DNA of 62,954 bases, from positions 1 through 62,954 of the forward strand of contig NKIB01013182.1 of NCBI GenBank assembly GCA_002256025.1, read 5' to 3'. The notes beneath the pieces were generated by a model. It saw only the letters and a list, made by a program, of their open reading frames with translations. It was not told the origin of the DNA and did no database searches. Position numbers and translations under genes: made by a program. Numbering within the stretch: position 1 is the stretch's first letter; every line of letters starts with the position of its first letter. The stretch is from Asterionella formosa (lineage: Eukaryota). Positions 28,833-40,037 of the stretch are shown here, in pieces.

Positions 28833-29328
28833 GATGAATTTCTGTAGTAAATGTTGGAGAGCATTGATGATGTGCTATGTGCTGTGTTGATCAATTCATT
28901 AATACGGCATGTATGACTTTCTAATGACAAGTTTTCGTACCAAGTACCGGTATGTAGCTGTTCTTTACTACGGTACCTGGTACGTACAGCTTCGTCACCC
29001 ATGATATCTTGTGTTTGTTGTTCCAGGTGGAATCCTCTCGTAAGTTTGCCTTTCTTGCATGTCAATACACACACAATGTTGCATACGTAGATACCGTTTG
29101 CGACCGATGACACATAGTAGCCATGAAGTACCGGGTATGTACCGGCATGGACAGGGACAAGCCACAAAAACCTCATCCTCATCAGCCACTCCACATTTAG
29201 CCATCACCATCAACCTCGTCAGTTTGTTCTCTATTACACTATTACATAGTTCCTTATCATTTGATTGTGTAATTTTGTGCTTTGTCCTTGTGTATAATTT
29301 CCGGTATTTAGATTGATGCAACGACAAG

Positions 29329-29458
29329 ATGCAACGACTTCCGGTGCTACTGCTATCATTATTCATTAGTACTAGTACTACTACAACCTCTATCCTTGTC
29401 AATGGATTACTACGTGCTAGTCCTCCACTAATCCGTCGAGGAATACCATTGGCAATAC

Positions 29459-29489
<31 letters not shown>

Positions 29490-32400
29490 GTCATCACGAC
29501 AAGGACCATCACGAAATCGTGACTTGATTGTAGTCAACAAGGCAAAAGAGGATGCTTCCTTTATGGAATCAGAAACAACCGCTTGTTCGTCTTTCGACAG
29601 TAGTAGTAACAACAATACTGCTACTATTATTGCACCCTTACCAACAACACGAGCTGTGGTCACGACGAAAAAGAAGAAGCAACAACAACAACAAGCTCCA
29701 TGGAGTTATGCTTGGCTAAAAGGGTCTCGGAAACGAAAAGTACAAGATTTGACTTGGGATCTTTCCCAAACTCATTTTCTATCGAATACTACTAACATGG
29801 ACGATTGGTGGAATACTGGGCTTGACATTTTAATCCAATGGGCTAAATTAGGTCAAGGTGACGAATGTCAAGAATTTTGTCGACAGCTACTAGCGGATCG
29901 AGGAACACGAACAAGCGCCAATTCTACTGCTGCTGCTGACTTTTGCAAAGCAAATCGAATTGTATTGCATGCGTATATTAATCAATATTTTAACATCACA
30001 TGGGATCATTCTACACGTAAACCAATGGTCCTTTCGACATTGGAATCGGAGCAAGTCAAAGCTGCAGCCAGTGCCATTATCAAGGCGGATGAAATATTGC
30101 AACGAATGGAACAACAAAATCGAATTCATGCCGTCATGCTGTTGAAAAAGGTTGAAATAATGAAGGACGATGATACCATGATGTTGAAACCTACAAATGC
30201 AAACCAAAGGGTAGCTCCATTGATGAGTGCTGAGGACTATACAGACTTAATTTTGGCATATGCACGATTGGGACAAGTCGTGCCTGCATTAATTGGGTTA
30301 CGAAGAATTGAAAGTTTGTACAAATCCAGTCAAAACAACCCACGGTTAAAGCCGAGTGTAAGTGTCTATTCACCATTGGTTAAGGCATTGATTGCTTCAT
30401 CGCCTAAAGTCTTGTATGAAAGATTGGGGGTCAAGTATGCAGCATATGAAATGGCTGTCATGGTGGGAAAGGATGGAGTAGAAGCATTTCGTCGAGACAA
30501 GAAGAAACCACCTGTACATTTGTACAATCACATGCTCAATGCCTATAGTCGTGTCATACCACCACCATCCTCAACCCTCACAACGGACAACAAAAGCAAC
30601 AACAACCACCCATCCCTCAAACACACCATTTTTGTGGATGAATCTATTCGACAAAAACAAGATCAAGTAGCATCAGGTGCAGATGATGTTTTGAATCAAA
30701 TGTTACAAGATGAAGTTGAACCAAATGCGAAAACGTTTACAGCATTGATATATACATTTACAAAATCAAATTGGTTGCCAGAGGCTCACGCTATGATGGA
30801 AGGATTGATGGACCATTTATTCAATGCTTCGGCTTCTGGAGTGGACAAGTTGGAAATGGTGGATATCAGATGTGTGAGGCTATTGGCCAATGCCTTGGCC
30901 AAGGAAGGGGCTGCCGACCAAGTTCAACAAATTATTTTTTATTTGTGGGCGTTGCATGAAAAAGGATATTATGATGTGGAACCCGATATCTTTTTATATA
31001 CTACCGCCTTGACGGCATGGTCGCATGTGGACAATTCCGTGGATCATGCCATGGCCTTGATGGATGATTTGAAACAACGGGGATTGGTTCCTGATGTTTT
31101 CACCTATAATGCATTATTGAATGTTATCGCCAAACAAACGGACTACCCGGACGCTGCCGAAAAGGCTGGAGCGCTTGTCGTGGAGATGCAAAAGGCAAAA
31201 TTGAGCCCTGATATTGTCACTTACAATACGCTCATGGCAGCTTGTTTAAAAATTACTGGGGGCCAAGAAAAGGCAGATCAAACATTGCAATGGATGATCC
31301 AGATTGGTAAACCCAAGCCAGATGCTCGGTCCTATATGGACCTCATACGAGCATACCTTCCCACAGACATGGTCAAGGCGGAACGTTGGCTGGATCGAAT
31401 GGAAGAACGATTTACGCCCCCACGTAAACTGTACGAGTCGCTTATTTTGCAATGGTGTCAAGTACCGAATCAAGCGGGACGAGCTCAAGCATTGTTGGAA
31501 CGGATGGAAGAATTATACAAGGCACAACCGGTTCTTATCCAAGGTCAAGAAACATTAAAACCGAAACGATCACTATACAATGCAGTGATACGGGCATGTC
31601 AAAATCAGGAAAAGGATGAATTGGCGGGTATAGTCAGGCTAGCACGGAACGGTCTATATTCAGATTCAACTGTCGAATCGGTGAAGTATACGAGTAATGG
31701 ACAAGTTTTTGCACTTCTGGAAAAGTTGGACCAAGATGTGGGATCGATTGACAATCCGGCTGGTACAACGGTGAACTTCAACGTTATGCTGGAGTATTTG
31801 GCAAAATGCGGTGAGGTTTGGGCTGGTCAACGAGCTGAAGATGTGTTGAATTACATGTTGGAGTTGCACCTGAAAAGAGGCAATAATGCGGCCCGTCCGA
31901 ACATTGTCACATTCAACAAAGTCATGGCGGCGTGGGCCAAGAGTTCTCATCCAGACGCCGGCGACAAAGCCGTCGCTACATTGAGCAAGCTGAACGAACT
32001 GCACAAAATGGGCTTACTCGAAGATGTGCAAGCTGATCGTGTAACGTACAATACAATCATGAATGCATATGCAAAGTCAGAGGCATCGGATTCAGCGGGA
32101 ATGGCCGAAAATTTCTTCAACGAGTTACAAGGAAGATACGATGCAACTGGTGATGAAAAACTCCAACCGGATATCATCAGCTTTACAACTCTATTGAATG
32201 CATATGCAACCAGTAGGGCGCCAGGGTCGGCGAAGCGTGCTGAAGATATCCTACTCCAAATGAATAAATCTTATCAGGCCGATCATTCAAAAGTGAAGCC
32301 AAATACTTTGTGTTTTAATGAAGTTTTGTTTGCCTGGGCTAATTCACGAGATCCAGATTCTTTGGAACGGGCTGAAATGGTGCTTCGACTGATGGAAGAC

Positions 32401-33543
32401 ATGTACGATGCCGGCAACGATGACGTAAGACCAAGCACCCGATCTTTTAATATTGTCCTCCTTGCTGCTGCAAGCGGTGCTAAGCAAGATGCTTCGATTC
32501 GAGCTCAACTCTTTTTTGACCGCATGAAAGAATCAGATTACATTGTTCCCGACGCTATCAGTTATAATACATTAATCGAGGCATATGCGAAGAATGGAGG
32601 TGACGACACTCTTGATTCAATTTCCAATCTTGTCGAAGAAGCTTACAATGCCGAGGGAGTTTTACTGAATTCAATTTTTTTCAGTGGTGTAATATCGTCA
32701 TTGTCACGTTTCGGGTTGCGTGGTGCCGTGGCGGCTGCCGAGAAAATTGTCCAGGAGATCAAAAGTAAACATGATGATGGCAAACTCAGTATGACCGTAG
32801 ATACGAACATCTATAATGCATTGATCAACAGCTGGGCCAAGAGCGCTGAAATTGATGCTCCCATACGCGCGGAAGAAATTTTGACTTTAATGGAAAGCGA
32901 AGCTACCAATGGTAACAATATGTTGAAACCGAATGTTCAAACGTATACTTCCGTTGCCGATTGCTGGGCGAAGAGCAAGGACCCTAATGCTGCATATCGT
33001 GCTGAGGCCTTACTTGATAGAATGGTACGATATGTCCGACCTAGCGTTAGAACCTACACTACCGTTATTCAAGCCTTTGCCCGAAGCCAGCTCCCTGACA
33101 AGGCAGTCCGAGCTCAAGCAATTTTGACACGAATGAAGGAAGATTTTCGAACAAACCCAGCAGCTCAACCTACCATTGTGGCATACAACGCACTTATGAA
33201 TGCGTGCGAGTTCACTTTTGGGGATGCCAATGATATTGAAGAAGCGTTCAAGGTAGCGTGTCTAGCATTTGACGAAATGCGCTCAGCTCCAGACCTCAAA
33301 CTGGACTATATTACGTACGGTTCATTCCTTGGTGTCATCAACGAGCTTGTGCCGAAGAGCGAAATGCGGAATGAAATGGTTCGCTTGGTGTTCAACCGAT
33401 GCTGCACTGATGGGCAGCTCGGATCGTTGACTTTGAAGAAATTCAAAGACACAGCTGGTCCTTCACTTTATCGTGAGTGCCTCACTGGTATTCGGGAAAA
33501 CGACCTCCCTGCATCCTGGAGTTGCAATGTTAATGAGAAATAG
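29329..33543 (+). CDS. Pentatricopeptide-repeat (PPR) protein, probably organelle (plastid)-targeted
   Basis: Many 35-aa-type repeats (PDVFTYNALLNVIAK, PDIVTYNTLMAAC, PNIVTFNKVMAAWAKS, PDIISFTTLLNAYA, PNVQTYTSVADCWAKS); hydrophobic N-terminus followed by a Ser/Arg-rich transit-like region. Confidence 0.93.
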
Positions 33544-33810: not shown

Positions 33811-36800
33811 CTATTTAGTGTTTCCATCTTTCTCCAAACGAGTTTGCATTCGATCTTTGTGCCGTTGTAGAGCCTGCTGAGATCGATGCTGAAGGGAAGT
33901 AGTTGCAGTTGACTGCGATCCCCCTCGTTCATATCGTTGCTTCATTTTCTCAACTAACAAGTGTTCCTTCCCCTTGAACTTCTCCATGATAATATCGATC
34001 CGATCCACCTTGGAAATGTCGTACTTTTCCAACAGACTCAATACTTCCTCCCTAACTGAATCAATATCCGCAGTTGGCGACGATAGTGGCGAGATACTTG
34101 GTGGTGATTTAGGCGATGTAGTTGCTGATCGACCACTTCTTGACCCGATTACTTGAGCCTTACGAGCTCGGAGATTGGCAGCCGATGAGGCGTCCTTCGC
34201 CAATCTAACATCTTTCGAGGCTTGAGAAAGAGCAGACTCCTTTGCCTCCAACTTCTTTGCTAGACTATCTCGTTCTCGTGTTACCTCGGAGATGTCGGTC
34301 TGCTTTTTGATCAACTCCAACTTTAGCTTCTCAACTTCTTCAATGGTTTTCTCTCGCATAGTCTTCTCCTGCTGCCATCGTGCAGCCATCTCGTTGTTGT
34401 TCTTTCGGAGTACCTCCAACGTTCGAGATTCGGATTGTGCCTTTGTACGCTGAGTCGAGATTGTTTGCAAGCGTTCTTGAATACGTAAGTTATCTTTTTT
34501 CAGAACGTTAAGTTGTGATTCTGACTTTTCCTTGGATTTGGCCAGTTGTTTCATTTCTGTTGTCAACGCTTTGACGGTCTCTTCAAGATTTTTGGATGTG
34601 ACATTGCGTTGAGCTGTACCAATCTGGATACGTCGTACGCGAGTAGCGAACTGAAGGGCATGGACGGATTCATCGAATGCATTGTCGATTGGGCAGACTG
34701 TAACTACCATCATGGTTCTAGAGTTACCTCCCAAGGAGTCTTGGAGGAGGTAGGTTAGCTTGGAATCACGATATGGCACATGTGAAGCCTTGCGGTCCAG
34801 GGCTTCCATAACATTACCCAGTGCCGACAAACTCTTATTAATAAAACCAGCTTCCTTGAGCTGATCACCATCAACTTTGCTCTTACGGACACGTTCGGAA
34901 CCCGCCAAATCTACCAAGTAAAGTGTGCCCTTGTTGCCAGGCTGGCCATCCAGACCAGACGAAACTTCAACAGCCAGGACCATATGCGAACGACTTGAGC
35001 GCTCGTTTAGGTTTGTTGTCGCGGTAGCCCGATGCGAGTTTCCCTTCTTTAAGAGAATCATAACATCATTGATACTATTCACTGGCTCCTTTGTCAATTC
35101 TGGTACTTCTACAGCACCATCAGCATTACGGCGAATATCTAACCTTGGCATGCCACCTCCGACCTTGTGCTTTTCAGCATTTGTGGGTGATTTGCCCGTG
35201 TTGATTGGAGAGAGCAAGTCGTAGCATTCATCATTGTAAATTTCCAACATTCCCAATTCAAGTTTAAAATTGAACTCAGCAGCCTTTTCTTCCTGGTTCA
35301 AAACTGATGCCGCCCGTTGTTGTTGCGACCGAAGATTCAAAAGGTGGAAAATTTTTTGAATGGTTCTATACGAAATACCATAGTCGTTGTCTTTCTCTGA
35401 CCCCTCCATGGTAAAAGTCTTTCCTGAACCAGTTTGTCCGTACGCAAAAATGCAGGCGTTGAAGCCGTCCACTACACTCAAGGCCAGTGGTTCCACATCT
35501 TGGAAAATCGCTTGTTGTGACTGATCGGGACCCCACACCTTATCAAAGCTGAAGGACTTCCACTTATTAATTCTTCCATCAAAGCACCCTAATTCAGTCT
35601 CGCTCAAGGCTTCGACGACATTCTTGTGGCCTGCATGAACTTCTGAGATACGCATGGGTCGAACACGGGCACAAACTTGAATGCTACCTTGGAGTGAAAG
35701 GATTTTCGACAGCAATTGTGCATTGTATTCGCGCTGCTGGGCCGATTTGCGTTCGAGTGCCTTGTATTCTTCTGAAATTTTCTTCATATCTCCAGTCATC
35801 AAAACCTCCTCCGCTGATAGCATGAGATTGCCAGTCATCGCATCGTCCACTTTGCCGTTTCTTGGCATCGCCAGGGCGCTAATTCTTGACATCTGCGTTA
35901 CAACTCCGGCAGCACCACCACTAGAATCAAATAATTGTGTCTGAAGGACCTTCAAGTCATCCTCGAGTCGTTTCACCTTCTTGTGTTCCATGATATGTTG
36001 AGTTATCAACTCTTCTAATTTCTTCTCCAATAATACCTTCGTCTTTTCTGCCTCGTCTGCTTGCACCTGGATTCGTTGACGAGTCGTAGGCGACGAGGAA
36101 CGAGTTCTTCGTCGTCCAGTTCGAATGCGTCTCGACAGAGCGTGGGATTGACCAAAATCTGAGAGAGGCCCAAGATCGTCACATGATTCGTCAAAGGAAT
36201 CCTCAGGTTTGGTGGCAGCCATTGGTGGCATATTCCTTCGCTTCGGTTCCTTACCAGGTGGGGGCGGTGGTGGAACAGCTGCGGCAGCAGCTGCTCGGGC
36301 TTTTTCTCGCTTGCTGACAATCAAGTGTGCTTCGGCTTCGGCCAGCTTGCCTTTGGTGGCAGACAGGTCCTTTTCAAGTCTCGAAACATCTCTTTCTGCT
36401 TGAACAATTCTCGTTTCTAATTCATTTTTCAAGTCAGTTAAATCCTGTTCTCGCTTGACCAAGTCATCTTTCGCGCGCATCAATTGATCTTGCAACTTCT
36501 TGACAGTTTCACTTTCCATATTCTGCACCTTGGCGAGCCTCAATTGTTCTTTCAACTCCTTGACAATCTCGCTTTCAGCACTGTCCTTAGCTGGAACTTT
36601 GGCCACTACAGCAACTGCATCCTTTGCTTGAGCCAGTTTGACTTCAGCATCGTCCAATTGTTGTTGCAACTTGAAATTATCTTGTTCTATATCCTTGATA
36701 CGTGTCTTCAGAAGAATGATCTCGCCTGTCTGGGCTCCCGCCAAGAGAGCCGATGCTTCTTCCTTTGCGGCTTGACGTCCAGCTTGTTCTGCTTCCTTAA

Positions 36801-38059
36801 TCGCTTCGTCGAATCGTTGATCGACTTCCAAGAGCGCGACTTCCGCCTTGGCCCGGTCCGATTTCGCGTTCTCTAGGGCTTCCTCGAGGTTCGCCACTTC
36901 AATTTTCAAGGATTCAACCTGATCGACCGTTTTTTCAAGTTTTATTGTCAATTCGCTAAAATCCTTTCCTCCTTCCGTGCGTGCCCTTGACAGTTCATCA
37001 CGGTGTTCGGCCTTGCATGCATCAAGCTTGAGTTCAAATGCCTTGACATCTTCTTCTGCAGCACGCAATTCTTCTTGTGTCAATTGCAGTTCCTCGTGGG
37101 TCAGTTCCAATTCAGATGCAAGTTTCTGCATTTTCTCGATAGTGGTAAAGTGCTCTTGACGGAGCGTACCAAGTTCTGCCAGTAGTTCTTCCCTCTGTTT
37201 GTCGTTCTTGGGAGCATGGTTCCCGTTGCTATCTGGCACCTTTTGTGATTCAGCAATGATTGCGTAAGCGTCCGAGAGCTTCTGCTCTGTTTCAATCAAT
37301 TGCTCCGTAACTAACTCCAATTCATCTTCCAATCGCTTGACATAATCATTATCTTCTTTTGGGATACCATCATCATCATCATCATCATCCGGCGAGGGGA
37401 ATCCATCTTCATCTGCAAAGGACGCAATAATTGGCTCTGGCCTTATTACATGGCCATTAGTTGTAGGCTCGTGATCGAACAGTAGCATGGTTTGCTGATG
37501 CTTGGTGGTCAAAATCTCCAACTCATCTTGTAATTCTTCCAATTCAACTCTCCCTCGTTCACGTTCCACTTCCAGTTCCAATCTCGTTTCTTCCAATTCC
37601 GATTCCTTGAATGCCAATTCTTCATGTGCCGCATCACATTCTTCTTGCAAGGTCCCCACCAATCCCTCGGCTTCTCTCAATCTGGCTTGTGATTCATCTT
37701 GCATGGATTCCGCATCCCGTCGTAATTGCTGCTCGACGGACAGTTTGTACGTTGTATCATGAAGTGCCTTTTCGAGCGAGGCAAGTTGGGGTGCAATGTT
37801 TTCCAATTGAGAGGACAATGCGGCATTGGCAGCGGAACTGTCGGCCAACTTTTCTTCTGAAAATGTATGGAATGGAACCATGTCAATGGAACACGTTGAT
37901 GCATGTACATGTATAAATATTTAGTATACTAATATTGTACTTACGCATCTTGGCGATTTCAGAATCCAGTTCCTCCTCCAGTTCTCGACTGGAAGTAATG
38001 TATTCATCAAAGGCAGATTGCAGAGCTACTAGCTCAGCTTCGCGTTCAGCGATGGACAT
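33811..38059 (-). CDS. Kinesin-14-like motor with long N-terminal coiled coil beginning with a NudE/NDE1-like segment, 2 exons (~1386 aa)
   Basis: Neck LSLQGSIQVCARVRP; FAYGQTGSGKTFTM, NERSSRSH, LVDLAGSER, HVPYRDSKLT. Exon 1 (38059-37945) MSIAEREAELVALQSAFDEYITSSRELEEELDSEIAKM; intron 37944-37857 (GTAAGT..TTCAG) gives in-frame QEKLADSS. Confidence 0.92.
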
Positions 38060-38676
38060 GGAATGCAGTTCAATGGAATGGAATAGTAAAGAGTATCGGG
38101 TTGCTTCTATTTGCAATTATTCAACAAGAGCAATGCTTTGCCTGTGCTTCCAGTACGATTGATTGGCTGCTACTACAATGCCTGAGGTTGATACTGTAAT
38201 TGCAATCGTGAGCGATTGCAAATGGGAGAAGGAGCCTTCAAATATATACCAGTAGTCTCTCTCCTCACGACAACGAGACGAATCGTCTCAATCAGCAAAT
38301 GGCTATAATAGTATGTAGGTGGGTAAATTGCATTGTAGGAGTAAAATTACCTGGTGGGTGTCCTGGTACCGGTACTGCTTTTGCTACCTTGAACCACGTA
38401 CCTGTACAGATAGCATTGTTGCATTTTACAAATGAATATATCATATATCCCCGGATATTTCAAGAAGGAAAAGTAGACTGCCGGTACTGTCAAATTGTCA
38501 ACGGTCCGATTATTTCCTAATTACTTCTAGCTTGTTTCGTCCATAATTTTCTAAATATTTAGTTAGCTACCTGTAAGTTTTCAAAAAAAGAGTGACAATA
38601 TCGCCTACCGGTATTTCATGCCATGGAACTCCTCCTCGTCATCGTTTTAATAAGGAGGTAGGTTACACACTATACA

Positions 38677-40037
38677 CTACTTCCAAAGTCTCTGCAGACT
38701 AATATTGGCATCACTATCCTTCTTCATAACCTTGGCCACAGCCATTTCGAAGTCTTCTTGTGTGACATGGACTCGTCGTTCACGCAAAGCAAACATGCCC
38801 GCTTCCGTACACACAGCCTTGCATTCTGCTCCACTCCCATTAATGAGCTTCTCCGCAATGATTTTCAGGTCAATGCCACGCAACAAATTCATTTTCCGTG
38901 AATGAATCTTCATGATGGAAATACGATTTTCCACATTGGGGTTGGGGAATTCAATTTTCCTATCAATGCGACCAGGACGCAACAGTGCCGCGTCGAGAAT
39001 GTCAATGCGATTGGTAGCCATAATGACTTTAATATTTTGAGCTGGTTCGAATCCGTCAAGTTGATTGAGTAGTTCAAGCATGGTACGTTGTACTTCTGAG
39101 TCGCCTCCACCATCACCACGCGAGGAGCCGATGGAGTCAATTTCGTCCATGAAAATGATACTGGGCGACGCTTCTCGTGCCATGACAAAAAGCTCTCTCA
39201 CCATGCGACTTCCTTCTCCAATGTATTTTTGTACCAGCTCAGCGCCTGATACCCGAATGAAGGTGCAATCGGTGTGATGTGCCACAGCTCGTGCCAGCAG
39301 GGTTTTGCCAGTTCCGGGTGGGCCATAGAGGAGAACTCCCTTGGGCTGCGCCACTCCCAGTGATTCAAATAATTCCGGATGCTTGATCGGCAATTCAATC
39401 ACTTCCTTGATCTCCATGACTTGCTTTTCTAGTCCTCCAATCATATCATACGTTGAATCAGGGACTGCCTCTACCTTCATCAAGCTGACGAGCGGGTCGA
39501 CCTTAGTAGGCAGGATCTTGTGCAGTTTGTAACTATCATTTCTCAGTGCCACTCGTGTGTTTGGCTTCAAGTCCTTAATGTCAATACCCGTGTCTAAATC
39601 CACAACGTACTTCCCCTCCGGATTGATCTTGACTAGCACCTTGTTCTGTCCCATTTGCTTCACCACTTCGCCGACGTAGGATCCTGGCTCTTGCAGGTGC
39701 TGCAGTTCTTCTCGCAGCATGCGGACCTTTGCATTCAGTTCATTGCGTCGAGCCTTTAATCGTTGGAGATCTGCGAGTCGTTCTTGTGCCGTCTATTGTA
39801 GCCATGAGTGAGGAGGAGTTTTGTTAGTATATGCTTATATATATATTTGCACACGAATAATCGATATACTGCTAAATAAATTGACACGACGAACAAGCCG
39901 CACTGACAAAGCACGCCATGGAAGCAATATAGGAACTTTGCTTCCCTTCTCATCCTTCTCACCTCACTCAACTCTCCAACCTTGGAGGCGTAGTATTGCG
40001 ACATGGAGGACTGCGTTGGAGCTATTGCTGTTGTCAT
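38677..40037 (-). CDS. RPT6: 26S proteasome regulatory AAA-ATPase subunit Rpt6 (PSMC5), 2 exons
   Basis: [49 protein letters not shown]-terminal LWK. Exon 1 40037-39963; intron 39962-39793. Confidence 0.96.

Follow-up and report, generated by a model that had tools for sequence, protein, structure and literature searches.

A NudE-like N-terminal module joined to a kinesin-14-like motor in diatoms

Cytoplasmic dynein has NudE/NDEL1 and LIS1 among its core regulators. The other motors that move towards minus ends are the kinesin-14s, whose action overlaps with that of dynein in the focusing of spindle poles. In fungi there is a precedent for kinesins that position dynein-LIS1-NudE, with Kip2/Bik1/Pac1/Ndl1 in yeast and kinesin-1 in filamentous fungi. 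Here we describe a gene of the diatom Asterionella formosa, in which a NudE-like coiled-coil module and a kinesin-14-like motor are parts of the same predicted protein. The gene lies on the minus strand of contig NKIB01013182.1 (assembly GCA_002256025.1), of which we analyzed positions 1 to 62,954, hereafter called the window. It has two exons and encodes 1386 amino acids (aa). The main features are the following:

37945..38059, minus strand: exon 1, with the ATG at 38059, coding for M1-M38 and the first base of Q39 (from the translation and from colinear RNA contigs).
37857..37944, minus strand: intron of 88 nucleotides (nt), GT..AG, phase 1, skipped by RNA contigs of runs X1, X3 and X5.
33811..37856, minus strand: exon 2 to the stop codon (33811-33813), giving together with exon 1 the 1386-aa protein P0003.
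37504..38041, minus strand: NudE-like coiled-coil module, residues ~7-156, spanning the intron (hhalign 97.0%; HMMER against 2V71, E = 4.3e-9).
34627..35667, minus strand: kinesin motor domain, residues 769-1115 of P0003 (Pfam PF00225, E = 2e-100, and PF16796, E = 6e-26; PDB relatives).

Our reading of this gene, to which we give a rough probability of 0.58, is that a NudE-derived module sits on a kinesin-14 and has retained a role with LIS1/dynein.

The first-pass annotation of this DNA had recognized NudE in the N-terminus. Pfam has no model for the N-terminal coiled coil of NudE, and PF04880 (NUDE_C) describes its C-terminal region. With Pfam, the N-terminus gave only sub-threshold matches to coiled-coil families. 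We built profiles from eight diatom N-termini (A1), from 18 more diverse ones (A2) and from four short stand-alone proteins (A3). Searched against the 177,635 distinct sequences of the PDB, A1 placed NDEL1 (2V71) at rank 1 (E = 3e-4, 24.1 bits), NDEL1 (2V66) at rank 2 and NDE1 (7E1T) at rank 4. The broader A2 profile lifted the score of 2V71 to 39.7 bits, again at rank 1 (E = 4.3e-9), with NDEL1/NDE1 chains at ranks 1, 2 and 6. Its alignment paired profile positions 21-156 with positions 33-178 of the 2V71 chain, interrupted by one gap of 11 residues. Among the unrelated coiled coils, a lamin scored highest in this search, with 23.8 bits, 16 bits below 2V71.

A fourth profile, A4, was searched against a word-indexed set of 5.8 billion proteins, from which just the 8000 candidates with the most shared words were taken for scoring. 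Nineteen proteins were found at E<=10. Sixteen belonged to the diatom family, and the other three, P0279 (E = 1.2e-4), P0280 from a lichenised ascomycete (E = 3e-3) and P0281 (E = 0.19), had PF04880 NUDE_C on record. In our own Pfam scan, NUDE_C reached 130.5 bits in P0280 and 74.1 bits in P0281. Profile-to-profile comparison by hhalign gave a probability of 97.7% over 150 columns between the diatom profile and these three NudE proteins. When the NudE profile was compared with ten full-length diatom kinesins (1373 match columns, mostly other coiled coil), it was aligned to residues 7-156 of P0003 (97.0%), and residues 1-160 from the window alone gave 95.4%. As controls from the same protein, the stalk (521 aa) gave 2.1% and the tail (269 aa) 1.0%. 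The profile ranks and these internal controls show that the similarity belongs to the N-terminal module in particular and does not stem from coiled-coil character in general.

The claim of a NudE-like domain was thus borne out by NudE-specific profile matches: 2V71 came first in the PDB, proteins recorded with NUDE_C were the only matches outside the diatom family among the candidates scored, and hhalign probabilities were 97-98% as against 1-2% for the controls. The five NudE blocks that the first-pass annotation had matched recurred as the same correspondences in both the HMMER and the hhalign alignments. It is highly probable that the N-terminal ~150 residues descended from the N-terminal domain of NudE/NDE1/NDEL1.

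The motor domain matched PF00225 over the full model (positions 1-327), and PF16796 (Microtub_bd) with 91.7 bits. Its top three PDB relatives were kinesin-14s, namely KIFC3 (5WDE, 240 bits) and KCBP (3H4S, 231 bits; 1SDM, 226 bits), and the best match outside the kinesin-14s was KIF3B, with 196 bits. The nucleotide-binding motifs GQTGSGKT (P-loop), SSRSH (switch I) and DLAGSE (switch II) are intact. The coiled-coil stalk runs into ...LSLQGSIQVCARVRP, with the neck on the N-terminal side of the motor. The motor is internal, with a stalk of ~570 aa between it and the NudE-like module and a coiled-coil tail of ~270 aa behind it. It is similarly placed in KIFC3, KCBP and the internal-motor kinesin-14s of plants. 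Judged by its sequence relatives, the protein is an internal-motor kinesin-14 of the KIFC3/KCBP type, in agreement with the first-pass annotation; this assignment is based on PDB score ranking and Pfam. From family membership alone, the motor is presumably minus-end-directed.

The two parts are joined by splicing. Exon 1 is an open reading frame (ORF) of 38 codons, translated (38059-37946) as MSIAEREAELVALQSAFDEYITSSRELEEELDSEIAKM, and exon 2 is one of 1347 codons. From 37854 on, the long ORF reads EKLADSS...QLASLEKAL...RRDAESMQDE...DAAHEELAFKESELEE...ELEELQDEL, and all peptide blocks quoted in the first-pass annotation are present in the translation, its coordinates being correct as well. Exon 1 leads into a GTAAGT donor, and a ...TTTTCAG acceptor lies 88 nt on, in phase with the exon 2 ORF. 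Position 37856 is joined to 37945 within single Logan contigs (4459, 4469 and 1073 nt) of three RNA runs from two studies (X1, X3 and X5; studies P1 and P3), X1 being a polyA transcriptome and X3 and X5 metatranscriptomes. The 88 nt that they skip read CT..AC on the plus strand, and hence GT..AG in the coding direction. The predicted splice of exon 1 to the kinesin ORF at 37944-37857 is therefore exact, by these contigs and by P0003.

The ATG at 38059 is preceded by an in-frame stop at a distance of 57 nt, and the RNA contigs are colinear with the genomic DNA upstream to ~38300, so 38059 is the start. The spliced product P0003 was found in the protein collection, with 100% identity over a 200-residue exon 2 query, and had been predicted on a 4459-nt contig. 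Its spliced N-terminus reads ...EIAKMQEKLADSS..., and the same ...AKMQEKLA... junction occurs in transcriptome-derived orthologues of several diatoms.

Residues for partner binding are known from the coiled coil of Ndel1. The mutant experiments in PMC3101096 report that E48A/E52A abolishes the dynein pull-down, that E36A/E39A lowers it, and that the two side chains lost in E119A/R130A are essential for binding LIS1. We fixed the numbering by the four glutamates given there (PMC3101096), which land on glutamates of 2V71_A at an offset of 4. Two segments of the diatom module align with these sites:

37964..37993, minus strand: SSRELEEELD, residues 23-32, aligned to GSRELEAELE of NDEL1, with E28/D32 in the place of E48/E52 (HMMER alignments).
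37675..37719, minus strand: the R85..E88..R99 segment, aligned to R116..E119..R130 of NDEL1 (HMMER and hhalign alignments).

In the HMMER alignments, NDEL1 residues E39, E48, E52, R116, E119 and R130 correspond to diatom residues E19, E28, D32, R85, E88 and R99, respectively. All 18 diverse diatom sequences have E28 and E88, and at least 90% of them keep R99. In the closer sets (eight N-termini; ten full-length orthologues) D32, R85, E88 and R99 are invariant, and the D32 position holds E or D elsewhere. The signature R..E...DD.E...R is also kept in the three NudE proteins. The dynein-binding motif lies in exon 1, which is often missing from gene models because of the conserved intron.

A mechanism can be proposed from these positions. 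The module would dimerise as a parallel coiled coil, like 2V71, and would still bind LIS1 and/or the intermediate chain of cytoplasmic dynein-1. The LIS1-dynein regulatory (loading) step would thereby be carried along, or anchored to, microtubules by a kinesin that presumably moves towards their minus ends, and LIS1 and dynein could become concentrated at minus ends, at spindle poles or at the diatom microtubule centre. Alternatively, two minus-end motor systems might be coupled on the same microtubules. We see about even chances that the module retains LIS1/dynein binding. According to PMC2239267, the diatom T. pseudonana has a gene for a canonical cytoplasmic dynein-1 heavy chain, DYNC1H1.

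The fusion of NudE-like module and kinesin-14 occurs across diatoms. Nearly all listed relatives of the N-terminal 200 residues (119 of 120) carry a kinesin domain. The organisms named by the source are the diatoms Grammatophora oceanica, Cylindrotheca, Nitzschia, Pseudo-nitzschia, Fragilaria, Attheya and Eucampia, and one non-diatom, the dinoflagellate Kryptoperidinium foliaceum, which harbours a diatom endosymbiont. The names given to these relatives in the source databases, such as “kinesin family member C2/C3” and “chromosome segregation ATPase”, do not mention NudE. An exhaustive search of representative proteins found 256 at E<=1e-3. When 47 of the longer matches among the best 150 of these 256 were scanned with Pfam, 15 had a Kinesin domain and none had NUDE_C; weaker NudE matches would fall outside the best 150.

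At least two sets of relatives have the module and no kinesin domain. The long ones (1005-2108 aa) are coiled-coil paralogues and include P0161 from Nitzschia inconspicua (2108 aa), P0197 from Cylindrotheca closterium (1721 aa), P0234 and P0254. The stretch equivalent to HEELAFKESELEE, which makes up the module's second half, is divergent in these paralogues. The source database calls P0161 a “copper amine oxidase”, an apparent mis-annotation. The short ones (280-366 aa; P0149, P0153, P0156 and P0216, all from Logan contigs) have an N-terminal IAAELKAL extension and a basic C-terminal motif, KRKRG..VRKLGKK..WFR. Their profile, A3, matched the three NudE proteins with an hhalign probability of 96.4%. 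By this similarity, they are candidates for stand-alone diatom NudE-like proteins. A further protein, P0144 (425 aa), has the NudE-like module followed by a ClpS domain (PF02617, E = 3.7e-11) and is probably a chimeric gene model or contig.

We calculated a tree from 50 module sequences, comprising all non-kinesin-fused rows and every third kinesin-fused row, with 43 of the 93 distinct rows omitted. As it rests on ~160 coiled-coil columns, it is a sketch. The three NudE proteins were split from all 47 diatom rows (100/100). Kinesin-fused forms were found in several deep diatom clades and the short family formed a clade of its own (88/88). The long kinesin-less family fell inside a pennate kinesin clade (99/99, with long branches).

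Several results weigh against a NudE-derived module with a retained LIS1/dynein role. The identity to NudE is 20-24%, between compositionally biased coiled coils (HMMER bias 27.8 bits). Single-sequence phmmer searches of the N-terminus, with or without exon 1, retrieved weak generic matches from the PDB at E<=10 but not one NudE chain, and a feature search of the ESM Atlas returned generic coiled-coil clusters only, with scores <=0.86. The NUDE_C domain of P0279 scored 19.4 bits, under the Pfam cutoff of 30.9. NDEL1 E36, which is of secondary importance for dynein binding, has a non-acidic residue opposite it in the alignment. P0003 had no PF04880 NUDE_C match at E<=10, and neither had the diatom short paralogues. 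From this, the C-terminal half of NudE is absent, and for the same reason we do not class the protein as a NudE orthologue, but as one with a NudE-like module at its N-terminus. Lastly, the module also heads diatom proteins without a motor, making lineage-specific partners possible. The empty single-sequence searches, the low identity with high compositional bias, and the generic clusters from the Atlas would all be expected if the likeness to NudE were a convergent similarity of coiled coils (heptads and an E/L/R-rich composition) and not due to descent, as would the failure of the A3 profile, built from four short proteins, to reach NDEL1 in the PDB at E<=1. Convergence fits poorly, however, with the ranks of NDEL1/NDE1 (1, 2 and 4, then 1, 2 and 6) among PDB sequences that include many coiled coils, and with the gain in score, from 24.1 to 39.7 bits, on broadening of the profile. 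The three matches outside the diatom family all had NUDE_C on record, hhalign probabilities were 95-98% for the N-terminus as against 1-2% for the protein's other coiled coil (790 residues), and the alignment is collinear over ~140 residues with matching signature residues. Given these controls, we consider convergence quite improbable. An artefact of the gene model, with exon 1 belonging to another transcript and the kinesin starting downstream, would account for the many database entries that hold exon 1 only or lack it: among 281 proteins, all of them search matches, 84 end at the exon 1 boundary and 78 begin at the exon 2 boundary. It would also fit a contig of a fourth run, the metatranscriptome X7, which covers 37580-38296, is 95-99% alike, differs at 18 positions and by 6 gaps, and keeps the 88-nt intron; possible sources are unspliced RNA and DNA carried over from a related strain. 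Still, the exon junction is exact in contigs from three RNA runs, and transcriptome-derived orthologues of several diatoms share the ...AKMQEKLA... sequence across it. This refutes the artefact, to which we assign next to no chance. Instead, the boundary-truncated entries, together with P0004, whose N-terminus is read-through of the intron, indicate that the intron position is widely conserved and that gene models often lack exon 1, as the first-pass annotation had anticipated for simple ORF calling.

With convergence and artefact both unlikely, the main rival is that the module descended from NudE and was repurposed. It would then be a dimerisation or cargo coiled coil for partners other than LIS1/dynein, and its conserved residues would serve a new, diatom-specific interaction. 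This is plausible in view of the kinesin-less paralogues and the lost NUDE_C: the module heads at least two motor-less diatom architectures (1005-2108 aa and 280-366 aa), and its second half has diverged in the long ones. Nevertheless, the positions that are invariant or nearly so across the 18 sequences include those critical in NDEL1 (E28, E88 and R99), and cytoplasmic dynein-1 is present in diatoms. We regard repurposing as the less likely of the two, and prefer the reading in which the NudE-derived module has retained its LIS1/dynein role.

In a wider form of the preferred reading, a LIS1/dynein-recruiting function of NudE would have been built into a kinesin-14 across diatoms, hard-wiring the co-operation of both systems at the spindle pole or microtubule centre. 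A single polypeptide would move to microtubule minus ends, or be anchored there, with LIS1 and/or cytoplasmic dynein-1 as its load. The module would also have radiated into a small family restricted to diatoms, with motor-fused, long and short members, which may together stand in for the canonical NUDE_C-bearing NudE. We put this forward tentatively. If true, the covalent fusion would be direct evolutionary evidence that the dynein and kinesin-14 systems act on the same structures. The positions E28/D32 and E88/R99 would offer a simple handle on dynein regulation, on the unusual diatom spindle and on the microtubule centre. The NudE N-terminal domain goes unannotated outside animals and fungi. 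Searches of the full-text literature, with subscription-only papers and InterPro/PANTHER annotation outside their scope, turned up neither a NudE-kinesin fusion nor diatom NudE-like proteins, and neither “NudE” nor “Lis1” occurs in a 2006 kinesin survey that includes T. pseudonana. On sequence grounds, the NudE-like module with a kinesin-14 appears to be a new, lineage-wide combination of known domains.

Two more conserved motifs were recognized in the protein:

37285..37344, minus strand: second motif, Y210-x3-LEDELExVTxQLIxxE, residues ~207-232 (invariant columns in orthologues).
33931..34053, minus strand: C-terminal motif, ...VLSLLEKYD..KVDRIDIIMEKFKGKE..L..KM..RY, residues ~1307-1347, at the end of the ~270-aa tail.

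The second motif, DYVKRLEDELELVTEQLIETE, is separated from the NudE-like module by ~50 residues, among them an acidic linker that contains a poly-Asp run. In the ten full-length orthologues, Y210, L214, E215, D216, E217, L218, E219, V221, T222, Q224, L225, I226 and E229 are invariant. The motif is common to the kinesin-fused proteins and the long kinesin-less paralogues (..LDELExVTEQL..). By analogy, this layout of coiled coil, disordered linker and short conserved helix recalls the NUDE_C helix of NudE. In the C-terminal motif, the same ten orthologues share R1307, V1310, L1314, D1318, I1325, D1326, M1329, F1332, G1334, E1336, L1339, K1342 and Y1347 as invariant columns. No Pfam family matched this motif, which may be a cargo-binding or regulatory tail element.

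Both neighbours of the kinesin gene were inspected. On the plus strand, an open frame of 1408 codons, stop to stop (29317-33543), has PPR-protein-like repeats, as read from its translation. It converges on the 3' end of the kinesin gene, with ~270 bp between them. In Nitzschia sp. Nitz4, Pfam domains for kinesin and for PPR occur together in one protein (P0060, 2051 aa), suggesting a merged gene model and a conserved synteny of the kinesin and PPR genes. Upstream of the kinesin gene, a minus-strand ORF (38677-39792) contains GPPGTGKT...; from its motifs it resembles a regulatory (Rpt-type) AAA-ATPase of the 26S proteasome.

Compared with NudE/NDE1/NDEL1, including fungal NUDE/RO-11, yeast Ndl1 and the structures 2V71, 2V66 and 7E1T, the diatom protein has a collinear match of ~150 residues. 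The shared signatures are F/Y-x2-SSRELExEL(E/D), R-x2-E-x3-D(D/E)xE-x3-R and A(F)xExEL(D/E)E. In both, the module stands at the extreme N-terminus, and the positions of E48/E52 and E119/R130 are conserved. Unlike NudE, the diatom protein is without NUDE_C, and its module has 11 residues fewer between the conserved halves. Past the module, it continues with the stalk of ~570 aa, the motor and the tail of ~270 aa, whereas NudE has a short, phospho-regulated C-terminus.

With the kinesin-14B-like motors of the KIFC3/KCBP type, the protein shares the motor sequence, the Kinesin and Microtub_bd Pfam domains, and the N-terminal neck with ...GSIQVCARVRP at the junction. It differs from them in that its N-terminal tail opens with a NudE-like module, and in the ~270-aa post-motor coiled coil with its conserved end motif. 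Kinesin-dependent delivery of dynein-LIS1-NudE in fungi offers the closest functional parallel, as there, too, a kinesin places this machinery along microtubules. In fungi, however, this is done by separate polypeptides and a plus-end kinesin, whereas in the diatom protein the NudE-like part is joined covalently to a motor that is presumably minus-end-directed.

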